DNA from: a phage
Direction: 5' to 3' (one strand)
DNA length: 64,000 nt
Sequence record: PZ386972.1
Position 1 is the stretch's first letter. Every line of letters starts with the position of its first letter. The position numbers and the translations under genes are program-made. Shown piece after piece: positions 38,061-49,478 of this stretch. The notes below the pieces were generated by a model. That model saw nothing but the letters and a program-made list of their open reading frames with translations, did no database searches and was not told the DNA's origin.

Positions 38061-38828
38061 TTATTCAGCAGCCGCAGCTTTTGCATCCAGTTTAGCACGC
38101 TTAGCGGCACCATCATAGTCCTTAGCAACCAGACCACGACGAGACAGCATAGATTTAACACCGCGCTCAGATTTACCAGTTTTCTCAGCGATCTCAGCAA
38201 CAGTCATGTTAGCCAGATCCAGACCTTCTAACAGATCTTCACGAGTTTTAGCACTTGAGGTTTCCTGTACCGGCATAGCAGCGATACGACCTTCACGAAG
38301 CAGGCTCAGAGCTTTACCACGGATCTGCTTGATATTACGACCGAAGTGAGCAGCGATAGCTTCAATAGTAGCACCAGCAACAACCTGATTAACAAAATCA
38401 GTTTCTTCATCCGGAGTAAAGGAACGAACAGCAGCAGCTTTTTCAGTTGGTTTAACAGAAGCAGTCATTTCCAGACTCAGGATCTTACCCTGTACCTGTT
38501 TAGCACCGAACTGACCACCAGCTACAGCAGCAGCGATTTCAGCATAGGTATACTGACCAGCATGAGCGTTCAGGAAATCAACCAGTTCAGCTTCCTGCTC
38601 AGGAGTCCACGGGGATTTCTGTACTTCGTTAGCTTTCTGTACTTCAAAACCTTCTTTACGCAGTTTAGAGCCAACAGAGCGAGCAGTAACATCTTTGCCA
38701 GTTTCAGCAGCCAGTTCAGTAGCGATAGCAGCTACTTGTTCTTGAGAGATTACAGAAACACCCAGAGCAGTGGCTTTTGCTTTCAGAGACTCGGTTACAC
38801 CTTCTACGTTCCAGTTCAGTTTAGACAT
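38061..38828 (-). CDS. D5-like DNA-binding protein with repeated helix-turn-helix-like modules
   Basis: 255 aa; three internal repeats of a WT/FTPE...EIA...G module; Ala/Lys-rich C-terminus. Confidence 0.55.
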   Translation of the reverse strand: MSKLNWNVEGVTESLKAKATALGVSVISQEQVAAIATELAAETGKDVTARSVGSKLRKEGFEVQKANEVQKSPWTPEQEAELVDFLNAHAGQYTYAEIAAAVAGGQFGAKQVQGKILSLEMTASVKPTEKAAAVRSFTPDEETDFVNQVVAGATIEAIAAHFGRNIKQIRGKALSLLREGRIAAMPVQETSSAKTREDLLEGLDLANMTVAEIAEKTGKSERGVKSMLSRRGLVAKDYDGAAKRAKLDAKAAAAE

Positions 38829-39603
38829 TATTATTTTTCTCCAATAGTTCTTTAATCGACAGGATTTCTATCCCATTCGTTTCGGCTTTCTTATAAGATG
38901 AGGAAGAACGCTTCGATTCATCCTCACAGATTAGGTATTTGACGTCTTTGGTAACGGATTTCTTAACCGTATACCCTAGACTTTCTAAATAGTTTGTTGC
39001 ATCCGTTCGATTTGCAAAATCTTGCAAAGATCCGGTAATACATACCGCGATTCCATTTGGCTGGGCAACTAATTCATCTGTAATGATGACGTCAGCTTTA
39101 GTGCCCTTAATACCAGTTGAAAATTTCCACGGTAATTCGATAACATCCTTGCCTTGTGGGGAATTTAGCCAGGCTTTATAATTTTCTCCAGCCTTGCCGT
39201 CAGCCTTCACATCATGGAAGCTAGTGCAATTTTGGGATAATTTCTTTGCTGCAACCTCTCCAATTAGAGGGATTCCTAAAGAACCGAGAACTGAACCAAA
39301 GTCAATGTCTCCGCGAACTTTAGTATTTAATTCGCTAATTAACTTAGCGGCAACCTTGCTACCCACGGCTCTAACCAAATCTTCTTCGGTTAGGTAAAAT
39401 AGTTCTGAGATCTTCGTCAGCTCCAGCTTCTCAATAGTTTTTGGACCAAAGCCCTTTAACTTCATTTTTGTACAGAAGTTCTCAATTAACTTACTTGATT
39501 GCGCTGGACAGTTGGACTTATTCCGACAAAATAATTGTCCGTTGACAAGATCTAGCTTAGAACCACAAGAGGGACATTGTGTTGGAATTTCGATTTTCAT
39601 CAA
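38821..39603 (-). CDS. NAD-dependent DNA ligase, C-terminal part (Zn finger, HhH, BRCT)
   Basis: 260 aa; CPSCGSKL...CRNKSNCPAQ zinc finger at N-terminus, GFGPKTIEKL HhH. Confidence 0.8.
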   Translation of the reverse strand: MMKIEIPTQCPSCGSKLDLVNGQLFCRNKSNCPAQSSKLIENFCTKMKLKGFGPKTIEKLELTKISELFYLTEEDLVRAVGSKVAAKLISELNTKVRGDIDFGSVLGSLGIPLIGEVAAKKLSQNCTSFHDVKADGKAGENYKAWLNSPQGKDVIELPWKFSTGIKGTKADVIITDELVAQPNGIAVCITGSLQDFANRTDATNYLESLGYTVKKSVTKDVKYLICEDESKRSSSSYKKAETNGIEILSIKELLEKNNNV

Positions 39604-42342: not shown

Positions 42343-42630
42343 CTACACATCTAGTTCAACGATCTCCCAATCATCCGCCAATGCTTCCTCTAAGGTTAGA
42401 GATGTGGTTTTCCATGTTGCGTCTTTTATATCGAACTTGGTATATCCATCTTCATTGGGCCACCAGGTAAACTCGACAATATCATTATTATCAACATCTA
42501 CTTTTATAATAGTAGAGTAACAGGTACGAACATCCCAGTTACCCCAGCTATCCCGTTGGAGATATTTTACATCTCCATCTTTAAGCAAATCTGTTAGCTT
42601 ACTCACGGCGTTTTCCTTTCTCTTTATCAA
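42343..42630 (-). CDS. hypothetical protein
   Basis: 95-aa ORF. Confidence 0.4.
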   Translation of the reverse strand: MIKRKENAVSKLTDLLKDGDVKYLQRDSWGNWDVRTCYSTIIKVDVDNNDIVEFTWWPNEDGYTKFDIKDATWKTTSLTLEEALADDWEIVELDV

Positions 42631-43303
42631 GTTTCAAGGCGGCCTTAACAGCTTCGTTAATCAACGTAATAATTTCTTCACGAGTCCACTTATATCCTAG
42701 AGATTTTACGTCTACCCCTAACTTTTCCAGATGTTTAACAGAAGCCAGCTCGTAATTCATATAATGAACGTTCTGTTGTTTGCCTTCTGATAGAAGCCAT
42801 ACACGGTAGCAACCAACAGGATTATCCATTGCTTTTTTGATTTCACCGATACACTGGTATCCAGGAACCCAAACAAGCTCACCAACTGCAAATTCTTCTG
42901 CTACAGCATCATCAGGAATAATCGGAGGATTCAATGGATCTACAATATCATTCAAACGAAGTAGAGCACCATAGCGTTCCAGAACAGATTTAACCATTGC
43001 TACAGAACGATAATTACGATCGGCAATCTCTTCAAAAGAATCACCAGATAAATACTGCTCAATAACGTTGGCTAACTCGATGCCTTCAATGAGTGTGCCA
43101 CGTTTCTTTTTCTTCATTTCGGCAACTTGAATCTGGCGGTCTTGCCATTCTTCAATCATCCTTTCCATAGTTGGATTGGATGATACGCCGAGCATTTCAC
43201 ATGCTGCTTTCTTAGTACCACCGTTCTCCAGATGCTCTATAACCTTTTTAAAGACTTCATCCGGGATTTCATGGATATGTTTCTTTCTGCGAGAACCAGC
43301 CAT
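42599..43303 (-). CDS. putative DNA-binding regulator with two helix-turn-helix-like segments
   Basis: 234 aa; KKAACEMLGVSSNPT and SFEEIADRNYRSVAMVKSVLER HTH-like; directly downstream of PN25-type promoter. Confidence 0.5.
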   Translation of the reverse strand: MAGSRRKKHIHEIPDEVFKKVIEHLENGGTKKAACEMLGVSSNPTMERMIEEWQDRQIQVAEMKKKKRGTLIEGIELANVIEQYLSGDSFEEIADRNYRSVAMVKSVLERYGALLRLNDIVDPLNPPIIPDDAVAEEFAVGELVWVPGYQCIGEIKKAMDNPVGCYRVWLLSEGKQQNVHYMNYELASVKHLEKLGVDVKSLGYKWTREEIITLINEAVKAALKLDKEKGKRRE

Positions 43304-43334
43304 ATTTAAACTCCTCTCTCAAATTTATGAATCT

Positions 43335-43363
43335 ATTATACAGAAAAATTTTCCTGAAAGCAA
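43335..43363 (-). promoter_or_regulatory. strong early promoter matching the T5 PN25 sequence (TTGCTT, 17 bp, TATAAT, then CATAAATTTGAGAGAGGAG)
   Basis: minus-strand sequence TTTATTTGCTTTCAGGAAAATTTTTCTGTATAATAGATTCATAAATTTGAGAGAGGAG recognised from memory as PN25. Confidence 0.8.
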
Positions 43364-43371
43364 ATAAATTT

Positions 43372-43614
43372 TTACGATTCCTTGAGCAAAGAAGCAAGTT
43401 CAGCATAGACTTTATCTAACTCAAAGCCGATGCGAAGAGATACGTTAGTTTTCCGTTGTTTAAGTAACCACTCGGATATGTTAGGGATGCCAGCTAATCT
43501 ATGTGGTACCACCCTACATAGCTTTTCCGAAGTGTCGTAAACAGGAACTTTACGTTCTTTTACTGGGAACTTCCTTGTTTCCCATTTTTTATTCTTCACT
43601 GTCATTTCTAGCAC
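43372..43614 (-). CDS. hypothetical protein
   Basis: 80-aa ORF. Confidence 0.35.
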   Translation of the reverse strand: MLEMTVKNKKWETRKFPVKERKVPVYDTSEKLCRVVPHRLAGIPNISEWLLKQRKTNVSLRIGFELDKVYAELASLLKES

Positions 43615-46378
43615 CTAGCTCTGCCATTGCTTCATCATGCATATGTTTCTCCTCATCAGTCATAAACTTATATGGAATTGGCATACACTCGATTTTACAA
43701 TAAGTTCTGTACCAGTCTACAATATTCTCCGTGTTCATATCCTTACCAATACCCATCATACCAAGATACATTCTTGCATATTTTGGGTTAGCACTCTGAC
43801 CTGTTTTAAGGAAGAAATCTTTCTTTTTACCTTTCAAAGCTTCTATGAATGGTTTGATAGTGACATTTGAACACTTCTTAATATCCTCCCAGAACATCTC
43901 GTGCATCTTATGAAAGAATGCAGCTCTATCATTCGGTTTATCTTTGATATATTGTTCAACATGCTCAACCGTTACATCTTTAATAGACTCAAGATGATAA
44001 TAGCGAACAAGAAGTAGTTTAGCTTCATACGCATCTGCATGGCGGGGGGCACAATAATCAGGAGTTGAGTACAAAATGGCTTTGATTCGCTCTTCTGTAT
44101 ACTCTTTACCTGCACCTTCGATAGTTCCCCAGCTTTCACTGAAAATATCAATAGTTGCACCCTGATCAAGCAAGTAATAACGTAAAGTACTAGTATAGTT
44201 CCTAGACTCCAGCTCCCTGCGACGTGCGTATAATTGCTGTGCTAACTCCAGCCAACCCTCATCAATGTTATATTGTTCAGAACCTGCGGAAAATCCACTC
44301 GTAGATTTATCAATAAAATAATAAATGTTCTGAGCGCCACGGTCGCGCCTGATTGCTTGAAAACGCATGTTTGGCGCTTGGTTACTAGTTCTAGTAATAA
44401 CGAATACGTTATCAAAATAGTTGAAGTCAACACCACTCGTTACGGATGGACTACATAATAAGCAATCAATTTGTTGGTCAATTAGCTCATTAGTTGTGTA
44501 ATCCAGAATACGTCGAATATCCACATCAGACGTAGAGTTTGAGTGGATTTCCTTAACTAACGCACCCGTATTACGACGCAATGCCATGCCCTTCTCATTC
44601 AGTTCATCCGGACCACAGTCAGATACTAGGATAGATTTCTCACCCATCTCTAGGGAAGTCTGAAGTGCAACCCAAATACTGGATTCATCAGGGAACTCAT
44701 AAGCATGAGCTTTTGACAGCATTTTACGATGATGATTATAAAATGCAACCGGTTTATCAAACTCAATCAAAGAACCATATGCTTCAATTGTTTCTGCACT
44801 AATATCCCCATCAGATAATATAATGATTTTTGCAGTTGCAAGAATATCCCGAAGAACCTGAATGCACTCGCGACGTTGTTTAACAACCGGGGCGAATAAT
44901 AGGTCATTCATTACTGCATCACATTCATCAATAAAGATTGCATCAATTTGACCAATAAAACTCTTGAACTTATGCAAAGAGTGAATAGTTGTGGACATAC
45001 GGTCAATAGCACCACGCTTAAAATTAAGCATATCTACAGACTTATCATATTGTCCTGCGCTAAATTTCTTAGCGTTTGAAGATACCAGCGCTCTAGTATT
45101 TGTAACTGCTAAGAAATTACCTTTAATAACTCCTGAATCTAACCAACGCACAACCGCCGTGGTTTTACCTGTACCTAGACTTGCTTTTACAAAAGTCATA
45201 TAACCTTCTGGCGGTACAGTATTTAATTTCAAAAAGTTATCAGTTTCTAGGGAATTAGTTTCTAGCTTTTTAAGTGGAATACCTTTTAAAACATCAGGTA
45301 TATCACGTTTAGAATTATTAACAAACGCTTTCAGAGCCTGTTTACGACCGTTATTAAAGTAATCTTGAATATTACGACTATTATCTTTAGTTGCAATATA
45401 TTCTGATAAGGCTGGACGGATTTCTTTTTCTAGCCATGCAAAATCAACACCATCCTCTAAAGCTCTGTGATAGAGTTTAGGTATGATACGTAGATACACT
45501 CCATCCTCAGCTTCTTCTAGTTCGCTGATAGTTTCCTCTACTTTATCAGAGGCAGCTTTTTTACCTTTAATTTGATCGAGTAAAGAGTAAAACTCCTCCT
45601 TAAACTCACCTCTAGTTGTTTCATAGTCAACCAGATTATTAGGTAAATTTACTTTAGAACCCTTAACAAATACCAGACGTGAAGCACCCTCCGCCTTAAA
45701 CGGATCTACTATACCATCAGTAAATAACGGATCTGCAAAATAATGGAGCTGTACGGAAGAGTAATAAGCTAAGTCGGCAATATCAAAGCCATACTTTTGT
45801 CTACTACTTTCGTTGATAGATGTAAATAAGAATTTGATTTGACCCTGAGTTACTTTAACATTAGATTCTAGTATTAGGTGCATTCGGATACCTGGTTTTA
45901 GCCCAGCCGAAGACGATGCATGAGCGATAAACCCTGCATCGAGAGGAAACATGTCCTCACTAATACTATTTAACATTCTAATAATATGTCGAGCCATGCC
46001 AACAAGATCAAACTTGTTACAACCACCTGTATCTACAATACCATCCACGTCCATTGCAATTATATGACTTGGATTAGATACATTAAAGTTGCCCTTCTTA
46101 CGCCGCACATTATTTTTAGGTGCAAGACATCGACCTCGTACCGCAACGATATGAGGATCAGACGTTAAACGTCTCATAAGAGGGAGCATTTCTACTAGGG
46201 TTTGAGGATCAACTTCATCAATTACATCAAACTTGAAGGGCATTGAAGCTGGTTTACCTTCAGAATGCTTTGAGGAAAATCTTTTAGCAAAAAGATAGTC
46301 TTCTGCTTTAACTTCTCGCCAAATGCCTGTGGCTAAATCGCGATGAAATCCTGCATGACCTTGTAGGATTGAGAACAC
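43589..46378 (-). CDS. primase-polymerase (AEP-like) domain fused to P-loop ATPase/helicase; candidate replication initiator
   Basis: N-terminal IIAMDVDG, GFIAHASSSAG and YFADPL resemble AEP motifs I-III; central Walker A LGTGKTT and Walker B IFIDECD; start placed at GTG after AGGAG, the six-frame ORF extends to 46456 with TTG. Confidence 0.55.
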   Translation of the reverse strand: MFSILQGHAGFHRDLATGIWREVKAEDYLFAKRFSSKHSEGKPASMPFKFDVIDEVDPQTLVEMLPLMRRLTSDPHIVAVRGRCLAPKNNVRRKKGNFNVSNPSHIIAMDVDGIVDTGGCNKFDLVGMARHIIRMLNSISEDMFPLDAGFIAHASSSAGLKPGIRMHLILESNVKVTQGQIKFLFTSINESSRQKYGFDIADLAYYSSVQLHYFADPLFTDGIVDPFKAEGASRLVFVKGSKVNLPNNLVDYETTRGEFKEEFYSLLDQIKGKKAASDKVEETISELEEAEDGVYLRIIPKLYHRALEDGVDFAWLEKEIRPALSEYIATKDNSRNIQDYFNNGRKQALKAFVNNSKRDIPDVLKGIPLKKLETNSLETDNFLKLNTVPPEGYMTFVKASLGTGKTTAVVRWLDSGVIKGNFLAVTNTRALVSSNAKKFSAGQYDKSVDMLNFKRGAIDRMSTTIHSLHKFKSFIGQIDAIFIDECDAVMNDLLFAPVVKQRRECIQVLRDILATAKIIILSDGDISAETIEAYGSLIEFDKPVAFYNHHRKMLSKAHAYEFPDESSIWVALQTSLEMGEKSILVSDCGPDELNEKGMALRRNTGALVKEIHSNSTSDVDIRRILDYTTNELIDQQIDCLLCSPSVTSGVDFNYFDNVFVITRTSNQAPNMRFQAIRRDRGAQNIYYFIDKSTSGFSAGSEQYNIDEGWLELAQQLYARRRELESRNYTSTLRYYLLDQGATIDIFSESWGTIEGAGKEYTEERIKAILYSTPDYCAPRHADAYEAKLLLVRYYHLESIKDVTVEHVEQYIKDKPNDRAAFFHKMHEMFWEDIKKCSNVTIKPFIEALKGKKKDFFLKTGQSANPKYARMYLGMMGIGKDMNTENIVDWYRTYCKIECMPIPYKFMTDEEKHMHDEAMAELGARNDSEE

Positions 46379-46877
46379 AACAATACTCCTGTGTTGGAAA
46401 TGAAATAAGTTTTCTTTAGGACTATTCAGAAAGAATAGAACAACTGTTACTGTCAATTTCTCAACAAATTAATTGCAAATACTGAAGTGGGGTGGCAACT
46501 TCCACTTTCACGCTGCGCTGCTGCTTTGCTATATCGCACAAATCCTTGAGGATGGCCGCTAAGCCAGATTTGCTCACCTAATGCTTCATATACTAGCTCA
46601 TACTAGATGCAATATAACTTACAGAATCACGTCTCGGAGTTTTTCACTCCTCCCGTCTCACTTCACAACCACCTCTATCTAGGTTGCTTCGAGGCCTTAC
46701 CAGGGTTCCTACGGGACGCAGATCGCTAAGTATTCTATTAACTATTTGTTTAAAAACTAACACGTAACAGTTAAAACAACCCTTAATGTGGCAGCCTAAC
46801 TGTTCCGTATCGCGGATTGTAAACAAGAAAAATTAGCAAAATCAATTTTTACTAATGTCTCTCAATTCAATATAAAT

Positions 46878-46906
46878 ATTATACCAAGATTTTGGGCATC
46901 ATGCAA
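46878..46906 (-). promoter_or_regulatory. early promoter (TTGCAT, 17 bp, TATAAT) driving the long leader
   Basis: read on minus strand. Confidence 0.55.
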
Positions 46907-46945
46907 GTAAAATTTTCCGGATGGTGCTATCATTGGTCTTAAGTA

Positions 46946-46974
46946 CGGATAAAACCGAGCCAAAATGACTCGGT
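46946..46974 (-). terminator. rho-independent terminator ending the nrdD-Sir2 operon
   Basis: ACCGAG / CTCGGT stem followed by TTTTATCC on minus strand. Confidence 0.6.
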
Positions 46975-46997
46975 AATCAGAGTTCAGCTAATAAAAA

Positions 46998-47390
46998 TCA
47001 TTCATCATTTAATCCTGGAACATAGATCCCAACACGATTTAATTGTTCTTTAGCTTCTGCGAGAATATCTGGAGTGTACTCCCAAATATCGTCTTCCACC
47101 TGTAAAAGATGGGAAGAACAACCATCATGCGGCACACGACATATGGCCAAACCACGTGGATGGAACAAAGAGAAATTTAGGGCAACAATTAAACCCATAG
47201 CAGACAACTCATTCCAATCCAACTCCCATTCCCCCGCGTAGCCGGATAGGAAAACACCAACACAGGGATCATCTATTTGCTGCTCCGGAAAAGTGAAGGA
47301 GGCTTGTCTTACCCCCAACCAACGTTGTAGCAGCTTCTCCGCACGTTTCACCAAACTAGGATCAATCTGACGCCAATATACTTGTTCCAT
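46998..47390 (-). CDS. hypothetical protein, tandem paralog A
   Basis: 130 aa; shares PCVG ... GEWELDWNELS.MGL..ALN..LF.P ... VPGL pattern with 47400-47828. Confidence 0.45.
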   Translation of the reverse strand: MEQVYWRQIDPSLVKRAEKLLQRWLGVRQASFTFPEQQIDDPCVGVFLSGYAGEWELDWNELSAMGLIVALNFSLFHPRGLAICRVPHDGCSSHLLQVEDDIWEYTPDILAEAKEQLNRVGIYVPGLNDE

Positions 47391-47399
47391 TCTGCCTCC

Positions 47400-47828
47400 T
47401 TAAGCAGTTAAACCTGGGATCATATACCCGAAACGTCGAAGTTTCTGAATCCCATCATTTACTTCTTCCGGTGAGTAAGACCAACCGTAACGTTCATTAA
47501 CCTGAAAACCAGGAGATTCACTAGTTTTATAGTTAACAACAAGGCGATGCTTAGCAGGCATAAACAGCTTATAGTTTAACGCAAAAACTAAGCCCATTTC
47601 ATCTAACTCTTTCCAGCCGACAATTTCTTCAAGACCCTCCTCTACCTGAACAATTAAACCAATACAGGGAGCCTCATCAATATCATCTTTAAAAGCAAAG
47701 GAGATTTCGTTATTCTCACACCATATTTTCAAAGAGTTAATAGCCTCATTATATAGGCTAGCTGGGAGAGTACGCCAAAAGTTAACCAAAATTGGGTTAG
47801 CTTCTTTAGAGAATACATTATTGAACAT
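47400..47828 (-). CDS. hypothetical protein, tandem paralog B
   Basis: 142 aa; paralogous to 46998-47390. Confidence 0.45.
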   Translation of the reverse strand: MFNNVFSKEANPILVNFWRTLPASLYNEAINSLKIWCENNEISFAFKDDIDEAPCIGLIVQVEEGLEEIVGWKELDEMGLVFALNYKLFMPAKHRLVVNYKTSESPGFQVNERYGWSYSPEEVNDGIQKLRRFGYMIPGLTA

Positions 47829-47830
47829 AT

Positions 47831-48337
47831 TTACACCTTAAATTGCTGTAAGGATTTACACATTTCAAGATCCGGACTAAATTCTAGCATATAGCTAACA
47901 GCTTTTAAATCTTGAAGATTTATCCCAGTCCTACCGTTGACTATAACCGTTGGATACTGATACATCATAGCACCCGCATCATCAAGCACACACCAATGTT
48001 TGAGCTTATGCTTTTCAACGAAGCGAAGAACAGAATTACCCCTAGATAATCCACCTCCAGTAAAATCCGTTGTACCAAGAAAGCGATCGATAAGACCTAA
48101 TCCGGTCATAATCTGAACGTTCTCCATCTCATTTCTAACAGAGAACCAAGATGATACCCCAACAATCATTATTGGGGAAGGACGAATAAAGTCCTGAAAA
48201 GCCTTGAGAAGTGGTTTGAAAACCCAGTCACTTCCAAAGAAAATCTTTTCATCATCAGGTGCATGATGGTGGGAGATGCTCGAATTGAGCACCCCATCAA
48301 TATCTAGAAAAATAATTGGAGTATTACTTATTTCCAT
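47831..48337 (-). CDS. HAD-superfamily phosphatase (putative nucleotidase)
   Basis: 168 aa; N-terminal IIFLDIDGVLN matches HAD motif I. Confidence 0.55.
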   Translation of the reverse strand: MEISNTPIIFLDIDGVLNSSISHHHAPDDEKIFFGSDWVFKPLLKAFQDFIRPSPIMIVGVSSWFSVRNEMENVQIMTGLGLIDRFLGTTDFTGGGLSRGNSVLRFVEKHKLKHWCVLDDAGAMMYQYPTVIVNGRTGINLQDLKAVSYMLEFSPDLEMCKSLQQFKV

Positions 48338-48506: not shown

Positions 48507-48682
48507 ACCTGTTTCTCCTCATCTCCAGAGGAGAACCACATATTATCCGTAGTATAGATAATTTTATATGTGTATCCCAACCGTTTTCTTACACTAGGAA
48601 ACCTGTAGGCAAACCTATAACACCAAGTGCCAGACTCAGTTATAAAAATATCCCATTCATTATTTCTTGCTTCTCGACACAT
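48497..48682 (-). CDS. small hypothetical protein (WCYR-motif paralog 2)
   Basis: 61 aa; DIFITESGTWCYR. Confidence 0.35.
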   Translation of the reverse strand: MCREARNNEWDIFITESGTWCYRFAYRFPSVRKRLGYTYKIIYTTDNMWFSSGDEEKQVCP

Positions 48683-49478
48683 AAGGTCTACCCTCTAAAT
48701 GAGCTTCTACACGAGCAATAAAATCAGGATCACTGAAAGCATCTACCGCACCCTTACTCCAATAAGGGATACTACGTTCTTCCAGCTGGTACATCTCACT
48801 ACGAGTCATACCCTGATAGCCTGGCTCCGCTGCTAGGGCACTATCATAGTAGTTAACTACCATAAATTTCGCAGCAGTCCTATTAAGAACAGGAAATAAT
48901 TCCCAGTAGAAGTTAATTACTTGGTTAGAGCAACCAACCACAACGATCATATCTTGGCTGGTAATACCATCAAAAACATTGTACATTTCTGCATATGCTG
49001 GAGCATGCTCTCCAAAGAAGATTACATTAGGTTTAACCCATTTATAATCATCTGGATCAATAGAAGTATATCCTACATCAATAACCAGTTTATTGCTACT
49101 ATTGTAGCTATCAGCTACAACAACCTCTTTTAAATATCCGTGAATGTGCAGAATGTCACTATGTGGAACGCCAGCACGCTCAATAAGGTCATCGACGTTG
49201 GTAGTCAAGTTTACTACTTGACCTGGATATTGTTTATACCATTCACCAATACGCAAATGCGCAAGATTGGGTTCAACAGTTTTTAGCTCTTCACGACGCT
49301 TGTTGTAAAACATATGGGTTTTATGATAAAAATTACCACGAAAGGCATGAATATTACATACTTCTTCTAGATCATAATCATCCCACAATGCTTTACCACT
49401 AGCAGTATCAGTACGAAAAGCTCGTACACCACTTTCAACACTCAAACCTGCACCGCTAATAATAATTAATCTACGCAT
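48660..49478 (-). CDS. Sir2-like (sirtuin family) NAD-dependent deacylase / ADP-ribosyltransferase, zinc-ribbon cysteines absent
   Basis: 272 aa; SGAGLSVESGVRAFR, TTNVDDL, HIHG catalytic His, VVVGCS align to sirtuin motifs; no CxxC pairs in the zinc-module region. Confidence 0.7.
   Translation of the reverse strand: MRRLIIISGAGLSVESGVRAFRTDTASGKALWDDYDLEEVCNIHAFRGNFYHKTHMFYNKRREELKTVEPNLAHLRIGEWYKQYPGQVVNLTTNVDDLIERAGVPHSDILHIHGYLKEVVVADSYNSSNKLVIDVGYTSIDPDDYKWVKPNVIFFGEHAPAYAEMYNVFDGITSQDMIVVVGCSNQVINFYWELFPVLNRTAAKFMVVNYYDSALAAEPGYQGMTRSEMYQLEERSIPYWSKGAVDAFSDPDFIARVEAHLEGRPYVSRSKK

Follow-up and report, generated by a model that had tools for sequence, protein, structure and literature searches.

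What a long gene-free leader is doing directly in front of a large replication gene is the question raised by a locus in sequence record PZ386972.1, of which a stretch of 64,000 nucleotides (nt), hereafter called the window, was analysed. The initial annotation had described here a minus-strand open reading frame (ORF) of 929 amino acids (aa) combining archaeo-eukaryotic primase (AEP)-like motifs with Walker A and B motifs, in a phage that possesses a separate primase and a DnaB-like helicase, and had placed it behind a 540-bp ORF-free region containing a promoter of its own, a leader of roughly 490 nt, and several hairpins. The leader had been proposed as a candidate replication origin or regulatory RNA. 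Our analysis bore out the observation and most of its interpretation: the gene is of the D2 type known from bacteriophage T5, and the leader, judged by sequence comparison, is almost certainly an elaborate conserved RNA structure that compensatory changes have maintained in nine or more T5-like lineages.

Comparative evidence for a conserved RNA structure

Alignment of the leaders of diverged T5-like phages revealed short invariant islands (ATACGGAACAGTT-GGCTGCC, GCTTAGCGGC, and GTTGCCACCCC) amid unalignable sequence of constant length. In nine lineages, the elements measured 413–437 nt and were mutually 34–58% identical, save for two pairs at 75% and 91%; the D2 proteins of these element-bearing lineages were 73–94% identical.

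The hairpins reported initially proved to belong to a larger fold, for which the comparative evidence was strong even though the z-score of the single leader sequence was only −2.07. Single-sequence minimum free energy (MFE) folds were predicted for 11 representatives, and in 10 of them an inner domain of ~310 nt was closed by the same long, AU-rich rod; RNAalifold analysis of six collinear sequences yielded 102 pairs (56 compensatory) in 18 helices. The alignment was obtained with MAFFT and RNAalifold on this collinear subset, followed by covariance-model iteration. In counts that are somewhat inflated, since one and the same alignment also yielded the structure, 92.6% of the pair cells of the RNAalifold alignment were paired, compared with 38–45% when the partners were slid by 1–3 columns, and 58 of the 102 pairs were changed on both sides, compared with 10–17 after sliding and 24.6 ± 3.3 after shuffling. 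None of 500 shuffles attained any of the pair measures.

Three further tests were less exposed to this circularity. Helix P3 (NNN-AU-CUNNNN / NNNNAG-NNN) was complete, with nine of nine pairs, in all 11 representative lineages, including five that had been left out of the structure derivation, and was built from eight different sequences. Of the 20 pair states that had changed in variants sharing 90% or more identity with the window, 16 still paired, and six were double changes. RNAfold, applied to the first 66–94 nt of the leader in 10 lineages, returned the same 5'-proximal hairpin, P0, with differing inner-stem sequences.

The paired cells contained 87 G·U or U·G combinations and nine A·C or C·A combinations. 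Since folding of the complementary strand, or of a cruciform, would give reversed or equal counts, this excess indicates that selection acts on the sense-strand fold, that is, on the transcript or, less plausibly, on a displaced sense DNA strand.

A search of Rfam 15 gave no match at the gathering threshold for the whole window or for 15 related loci, and with E values of up to 10, the region 46250–47100 returned only sub-threshold snoRNA-like noise. Searches for tRNA and transfer-messenger RNA genes found none, and no structured RNA of the T5 family was found in the literature. The leader RNA family thus appears to be undescribed.

Transcription and coding status of the leader

D2 is separated by a gap of 619 bp (46379..46997) from the gene upstream of it, whose stop is at 46998. 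The length of 540 bp given in the initial annotation is the distance to the TTG codon of a mechanically called ORF and had to be corrected, whereas the statement that the region lacks a gene stood, no conserved ORF being present.

Read on the minus strand, the gap contains a terminator-like hairpin with a U-run (CCGAGTCATTTTGGCTCGGTTTT, 46951..46973), which would end the transcript of the upstream gene and whose stem covaries between lineages (CCGAG/CTCGG, CCAGG/CCTGG-type, and CCAAG/CTTGG). This is followed by promoter P1 (46878..46906; TTGCAT, 17 nt, TATAAT), with an AT-rich tract upstream of it and a TTGAGAG motif downstream (46859–46865). Promoter P1 resembles T5 early promoters such as PN25. 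A TTGCA-N17-19-TATAAT sequence was present at the same place in 34 of 39 T5-like loci, and the promoter was 98% identical to that of T5, compared with ~93% in the flanks, in agreement with the view that the leader has its own promoter. The predicted transcription start lies near 46871, ~493 nt before the start codon, which agrees well with the leader length given initially. A second promoter-like site (TTGATT-18-TACAAT, 46816–46845) was rejected, since it coincides in part with the conserved 5' hairpin and only close relatives keep it.

ORFs of up to 60 aa are present in the gap of the window, and ORFs of 25–73 aa were found on both strands over 11 lineages; none of them keeps its position, strand, or frame across these lineages. 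Gene callers left a gap of 390–820 nt empty in all eight independent genomes or contigs, and three small "hypothetical proteins" (33–60 aa) annotated in the gap of PP407513 belong to no PHROG family. A protein-coding gene in the leader, the case that the initial annotation had named as fatal to its proposal, was therefore not found, and the leader is non-coding.

Architecture of the fold

All parts of the fold lie on the minus strand and are given here in the direction of transcription. The first is the long 5'-proximal hairpin P0 (46824..46864), with a GAGAGAC...UUUUUCU base and a covarying inner stem. It is followed by the core structured element of ~435 nt and ~18 helices (46376..46812), as defined by RNAalifold, the pair counts, and the ratio of G·U to A·C. 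The element begins with hairpin P1 (46785..46811; nine pairs, four of them compensatory, 98% paired), which carries the most conserved island, ATACGGAACAGTTAGGCTGCC, a motif occurring once in the window. The long-range AU-rich rod P2 is formed by a 5' strand at 46730..46771 and a 3' strand at 46449..46482, which together close the ~310-nt domain; compensatory change was found in 13 of the 20 pairs of its helices 2–5. The representative in whose MFE fold the rod was missing was L127, and a short version was seen in L057.

Inside the rod, the 5' strand of P3 (GCG-AU-CUGCGU, 46716..46726) pairs with 46510–46518 (GCGCAG-CGU). The P4–P6 sub-domain (46636..46715; helices 7–12 of the pair counts) comprises P4 (CCCGU/ACGGG), P5 (CAACC/GGUUG), and P6 (GGAG/CUCC), with P5 reading CAACC/GGUUG, CUCUC/GAGAG, CAAUC/GAUUG, or CGGCA/UGCCG, depending on the lineage. 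The three-way-junction sub-domain P8–P9–P10 (46524..46621), defined by covariance models R1 to R3, contains the invariant P10 loop GCUUAGCGGC at 46555–46564. Hairpin P7 (46486..46506; helix 17) has the conserved loop AAGUUGCCACC on a variable stem (GUGG/CCAC, GAGG/CCUC, AAGGG/CCCUU, UGGGG/CCCCA, and GUGGG/CCCGC). The last helix (helix 18) is hairpin P11 (CUAUUC-UUUCU-GAAUAG, 46422..46438), after which comes an unstructured A/U-rich spacer; a role of P11 as a terminator was ruled out, as no U-run follows the hairpin. The consensus leaves the final 47 columns of the RNAalifold alignment unpaired, and these contain both the ribosome-binding site and the start codon. In the MFE fold of the window, the 5' end of the element also pairs with the spacer that separates the ribosome-binding site from the start codon, but this helix is not conserved and was discarded.

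The junction model also gave a weak second match (E 0.18) at 46687–46785 on the minus strand, within the element's 5' half. Immediately 5' of P3, the sequence ACUUAGCGAUC nearly repeats the invariant loop GCUUAGCGGC. The second match may be due to chance or to an old internal duplication.

Distribution of the leader RNA

To follow the element beyond close relatives, we used a covariance model of the 98-nt three-way-junction sub-domain (46524–46621), which was built from a seed of four close sequences and iterated. Two iterations recovered the junction at the homologous place in Klebsiella (Sugarland), Pectobacterium, and Erwinia phages and in several metagenomic lineages (E 1e-16 to 3e-4), as well as in T5 and its relatives (E 0.005–0.016), and a third iteration added a Providencia-type lineage (E 7e-4 to 4e-3). 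The junction domain was found in nine phage lineages, T5 included. In a set of 11 distinct junction sequences, 26 of 29 pairs were compensatory, and 92.2% of the cells were paired, compared with 35–45% after sliding.

The junction model gave no match in Proteus-type, Vibrio, or marine relatives, several of which likewise have long gene-free leaders. The Vibrio T5-like phages (loci L075, L076, L082, L077, and L089; D2 ~45% identical) possess ORF-poor leaders of 588–1056 nt (L075 1619–2371, L077 1804–2389, L089 1363–2416), which follow a conserved TTGACATTG...TATA promoter and are 24–41% identical between lineages, and the sequence GUGACUAACCAA is common to L075, L089, and the marine locus L090. 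Neither the junction model nor Rfam recognised the Vibrio-type leaders, which may represent a separate or very diverged RNA.

A search of 5,426 E. coli genomes gave no homolog. In viral contigs, all 30 exact matches of the most conserved motif fell on contigs of ~96–122 kb, most of which are IMG/VR contigs known to carry T5-like D2 loci. In 596 Gb of bacterial genomes, this 18-base motif had 13 matches, compared with ~17 estimated by chance, and none of these was accompanied by the junction domain. The RNA therefore seems to be restricted to T5-like phages.

Identity and domain organisation of the D2 protein

The mechanical ORF (43589..46456, minus strand) comprises 955 aa counted from a TTG codon. 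Translation actually begins with the GTG at 46378, which lies 7 nt past AGGAG (46386–46390), and the product has 929 aa, as given initially. The ribosome-binding site and start codon thus occupy 46376..46390, and the gene, 929 aa plus stop, occupies 43589..46378 and matches phrog_3712 over its full length. The published expression primer for T5 D2 encodes MVFSILQG, which is the start found here, and in T5 D2, PF02399 was located at aa 392–532 and Walker A at aa 399–406 (PMC3632103). The PF02399 region and the Walker A position of the window protein agree with these values, and the two proteins are ~93% identical. With the same start residues, PF02399 region, and Walker A position, the 929-aa protein is the ortholog of T5 D2. 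T5 D2 is an ATP-dependent bipolar helicase, amber mutants of which show no DNA synthesis, and an initiator role has been proposed for it (Wong, Sayers and Sanders, NAR 2013; PMC3632103). The main text of that paper mentions neither a primase or AEP domain nor the upstream leader.

In the N-terminal domain (aa 1–250, 45629..46378, minus strand), the AEP-like motifs noted initially were borne out by an alignment of 55 homologs, in which D110, D112, S155, S157, H167, and D202 were invariant down to the lowest identity of 32%. These residues follow the DxD, S..H, D pattern of AEP motifs I–III, with D110 and D112 on a beta strand at 104–114 and H167 on a beta strand at 164–176. An exhaustive phmmer search of 1.8 billion representatives produced, past the orthologs, remote matches with E values of 1e-6 to 1e-4, and those that were scanned carry PriCT_2, D5_N, Pox_D5, DUF5906, or VapE domains, which are hallmark partners of AEP primases. 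Pfam recognised no family over aa 1–385 and gave no AEP, Prim-Pol, or PriCT match for the query and 10 diverse homologs, a profile search of PDB sequences found UL9 and no AEP family, and a word-indexed protein search with the N-terminal domain alone returned two fragments and nothing else.

The initial annotation had proposed structural comparison with PrimPol, D5-like, and UL9-like proteins as a check, and both halves of D2 found counterparts among them. By fold, the N-terminal domain matched 8xig, 8hwa, and 3m1m, as expected of an AEP catalytic core. An AlphaFold model of full-length D2 (predicted local distance difference test score, 86.6) was compared with solved and predicted structures using Foldseek. 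Among predicted viral structures, full-length D2 aligned over ~860–1290 columns (E 1e-24 to 1e-12) with proteins of Marseillevirus, Catovirus, Bodo saltans virus, Harvfovirus, Hyperionvirus, Clandestinovirus, and abalone herpesvirus, some of which are named helicase-primase, PrimPol/helicase, or PriCT-2. The N-terminus of D2 is thus almost certainly an AEP primase-polymerase-like domain with apparently intact catalytic-type residues. A helical domain at aa 260–356 (45311..45601, minus strand) occupies the slot of PriCT-type domains in primase-helicases, where PriCT_2 follows the matched AEP region in the remote homologs, and is a candidate PriCT domain.

The following part, aa ~385–700 (44279..45226, minus strand), is a UL9-type superfamily 2 (SF2) helicase core. 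Its Walker A (GTGKT, aa 402–406) and Walker B (FIDECD, aa 482–487, with DExD at 484–487) motifs, likewise part of the initial annotation, are invariant among the 55 aligned homologs. Pfam assigned aa 394–533 to Herpes_ori_bp (PF02399) with 29.7 bits against a cut-off of 20, and UL9 of herpes simplex virus 1 (HSV-1) was the sole significant PDB sequence match (E 1e-5, aa 388–532). The best solved structures in the Foldseek search were the HSV-1 UL9–DNA complexes 9hgi and 9hgj (E ~1e-14, 556–595 columns), and generic SF2 helicases were five orders weaker (E ~1e-9). The model thus indicates that aa ~385–929 of D2 resemble HSV-1 UL9 beyond the generic helicase core. Since 556–595 aligned columns exceed the helicase core alone, the UL9 alignment probably also covers the C-terminal helical domain (aa ~701–929, 43592..44278, minus strand). 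Despite this likeness, identity to UL9 is only ~15%, mammalian herpesvirus UL9 is without an AEP domain, and no UL9-type origin boxes were identified at this locus.

An architecture of AEP and UL9-like SF2 domains has been described in mimivirus R8, African swine fever virus F1055L, and ostreid herpesvirus 1, and the AEP part was lost in mammalian UL9 (PMC11253617). In these giant-virus and malacoherpesvirus primase-helicases, as in D2, an N-terminal AEP domain is followed by the helicase in one polypeptide, whereas the identity of the giant-virus proteins to D2 is 12–15% and D2 is a member from a tailed phage. The primase-helicases with a superfamily 3 (SF3) motor (poxvirus D5/E5, pRN1 ORF904, and phage and plasmid PriCT-2/D5_N/VapE proteins) resemble D2 in the AEP domain, by fold and weak sequence similarity, and differ from it in the motor, which is SF2 in D2. 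An AEP domain in T5 D2 was not found in any paper in our literature search; the architecture is already known, and its occurrence in T5 D2 is previously unremarked.

Mosaicism and insertions

Identity to T5 varies sharply along the locus. It is ~93% in the flanks, drops to 40–51% over 46479–46778 (the inner RNA domain), rises to 77–79% in the 3' leader and first codons and to 84–91% in most of the AEP-coding part, and, after a dip to 66% at 45129–45278, reaches 93% again. The closest counterpart of the window's inner domain, at 79–80% identity, comes from a phage with a D2 identity of only 82%. Among phages ~93% identical in the flanks, the inner 300 nt occur as at least two or three mutually unalignable "alleles" (in T5, L053 2100–2400), and every allele of the inner domain retains P2, P3, and the junction. 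Among phage records, 163 had an N-terminal domain sharing 90% or more identity with that of the window, and 164 had a full-length leader of the window type. Co-inheritance of the leader allele and the N-terminal domain fits these data; since the two segments adjoin, the data hint only weakly at a functional pairing.

Natural insertions were all located upstream of the element, with none inside it and none between the element and D2. In Salmonella phage SP76 (L135 443–895), a gene for a 150-aa HNH endonuclease is present between the upstream terminator and the promoter, together with a replacement promoter, and loci L037, L056, L066, and L136 have inserts of ~90–100 nt in this zone. The local mosaicism may stem from such homing traffic.

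Possible functions of the leader RNA

Our tentative preference, into which the secure descriptive core has been counted, is that the RNA is functionally coupled to D2, most likely as a protein-binding regulatory 5' untranslated region (5'UTR). D2 itself, or some other early factor of the phage or the host, would recognise the invariant loops (GCUUAGCGGC, AAGUUGCCACC, and the ACGGAACAGUU-GGCUGCC hairpin), and this binding would set the amount of initiator or tether new D2 near its own gene. Protection or processing of the message would be a further role of hairpin P0 and the long rod. We rank this reading first because the element is part of the D2 message, no terminator-like site was found on the transcribed strand between the element and D2, and the insertions respect the linkage. 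In the loci examined, the element was always directly upstream of D2 in the same orientation and never apart from it, and the drop in identity to T5 extends from the central RNA domain into the AEP-coding part. A conserved structured 5' mRNA region is also a feature of the T4 gene 43 and gene 32 operators and of ribosomal-protein leaders; however, those operators comprise tens to ~100 nt and overlap the ribosome-binding site, whereas the leader element comprises ~435 nt and leaves this site unpaired. Several points weigh against a regulatory 5'UTR: with the ribosome-binding site and start unpaired in the consensus, no expression platform is visible; ~18 helices are far beyond the needs of known autoregulatory operators; the candidate helix from the 5' end of the element to the pre-start spacer is not conserved; the linkage with the AEP-coding part could be mere physical adjacency; and the long leaders of the Vibrio phages escape the model. 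The description of a non-coding sense-strand fold under strong purifying selection is nearly certain, and the mechanism is a best guess.

A possible but less likely explanation is that the leader is an origin, at which the transcript from promoter P1, or the sense DNA strand displaced in an R-loop, would be recognised and extended by the AEP domain of D2, with unwinding by the helicase. The requirement of D2 for DNA synthesis and its proposed initiator role (PMC3632103) speak for this explanation, as do the apparent integrity of the AEP domain despite the presence of a separate DNA primase and a DnaB-like helicase, the strong conserved promoter reading into the element, the coincidence of the leader allele with lowered identity in the AEP-coding part, and a single-strand structure that suits RNA or displaced single-stranded DNA alike. 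D2 also has a nearly central position in the T5 genome, at ~59.5 kb of 121.75 kb; early electron microscopy is reported to have placed a primary origin close to the genome's midpoint, and initiator genes often adjoin their origins. A strong promoter and a long folded leader beside replication genes are likewise found in ColE1 RNA II, in which the fold matters for function, in T4 oriF/oriG, and in the T7 primary origin, although none of these has sequence or structural similarity to the leader, and the logic would be similar to that of the RSF1010 RepB' primase hairpin priming sites ssiA and ssiB. However, the leader contains no iterons or repeated binding sites of the kind expected of an iteron-type double-stranded origin: its repeats are two-copy only, 9–18 nt long, and at chance level, and the three copies of GCTTAGCGGC in 64 kb are within chance (18 of 100 shuffles gave at least three). 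Apart from the AU-rich rod, an AT-rich unwinding element was not identified, a multi-helix fold of 435 nt is unlike known single-strand initiation sites, and no origin map of T5 was found in the literature. More speculative, and doubtful at present, is the extended proposal that the leader is a new class of large RNA defining the T5 origin, in which the transcript or displaced strand would be recognised by the D2 AEP domain as a leading-strand primer or landing pad, and the swappable central domain would form with the AEP domain a specificity pair that separates co-infecting replicons.

Slightly less probable than a simple origin is an independent trans-acting RNA, in which the rod (~45 bp) would be a processing site, e.g. 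for RNase III, that releases a stable RNA of ~310–390 nt acting as a scaffold, a ribozyme, or a decoy for a host factor or defence system, the D2 promoter being merely borrowed. Size and complexity like those of large ornate RNAs, invariant loops on variable stems, the lack of an expression platform, the enclosure of the whole inner domain by the rod, and the swapping of the central domain among ~93%-identical phages, as in an arms race, would suit such an RNA. With GOLLD, ROOL, OLE, and raiA, of which GOLLD and ROOL are associated with phages, the leader shares the size class (~400 nt or more), the many helices, and the invariant loops; unlike them, it is the 5'UTR of one gene, confined to T5-like phages, and without similarity to these or other Rfam families. 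An independent RNA is also difficult to reconcile with an element that is never separated from D2 in the examined loci and has no terminator of its own, and processing is pure inference. We consider a metabolite-sensing riboswitch acting on D2, for example in response to the nucleotide pool, to be improbable: the conserved junctions and loops with variable stems are aptamer-like and nucleotide-metabolism genes are nearby, but the element, behind which neither a terminator nor a helix that would sequester the ribosome-binding site is present, is several times the size of known aptamers, matches no Rfam riboswitch even at E values of up to 10, and has a central domain swapped between close relatives, which is unusual for a ligand pocket. 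It is most improbable that the gap consists of small-protein genes, functionless spacer, or a recombination scar of homing endonucleases. The 33–60-aa ORFs annotated in PP407513 and the HNH endonuclease gene inserted nearby in SP76 would be accounted for; the failure of any ORF to persist over 11 lineages, the lack of PHROG assignments, and the silence of gene callers in eight lineages argue against coding, and compensatory changes, constant length (413–437 nt), and invariant islands reflect selection on the fold. The retron anti-defence factor Rad of T5-like phages was also considered and set aside as unrelated, being a protein in the tRNA region.

Genomic context

At the DNA level, the region 43000–47500 had 454 matches among phage records, nearly all of them T5-like phages of Salmonella, Escherichia, and relatives, and the closest records were 97% identical (Tequintavirus, Demerecviridae), which identifies the source of the window, on sequence grounds, as a T5-like phage (Tequintavirus). 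The gene order, leftward on the minus strand, is nucleotide-metabolism genes, D2, and then ligase, DnaB-like helicase, DNA primase, and DNA polymerase. In the annotation of a 97%-identical phage, the DnaB-like helicase and the DNA primase (PHROG family 47) are located a few kb downstream of D2, and on this basis the initial statement that the phage has both of them separately holds.

Naming in the databases is inconsistent. GenBank labels for the 929-aa ORF are "replication origin binding protein", "5'-3' and 3'-5' helicase", and "DNA primase C", and several records put "D2 protein" (or "helicase") on the adjoining 234-aa ORF (42599–43303); it is the 929-aa protein (43589–46378 here), and not this neighbour, that corresponds to the published D2 helicase of T5. 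Some records label neighbouring genes of D2 "tail tube protein" or "Phage exonuclease".

Immediately before the leader, two tandem paralogous genes (46998–47390 and 47400–47828, minus strand) encode proteins of 130 and 142 aa that belong to PHROG 2502 and, in relatives, to Pfam DUF7415, and Sir2-like genes are present at 47831–48337 and 48660–49478. Further copies of GCTTAGCGGC, with 0 and 1 mismatch, are located at 38099–38108 and 39342–39351 on the plus strand, inside coding sequence. Cumulative GC skew has turning points at ~24 kb and ~52 kb and no feature at the leader. Since the long ORFs in the stretch examined (~40.8–51.8 kb) are on the minus strand, the turning points probably mark switches in the direction of transcription.

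Implications

Routine annotation fills this leader with spurious small ORFs. The comparative support for the leader RNA exceeds that of many accepted RNA families. Large well-folded RNAs are rare, and their functions have often proved sophisticated. D2 would be the phage counterpart of the giant-virus primase-helicases and would give T5 a second primase-like domain, of predicted activity, which raises the question of why T5 retains an AEP domain beside its separate primase. T5 is a classical model phage that is amenable to genetics, and the position of the RNA immediately ahead of the initiator gene makes its role directly testable.

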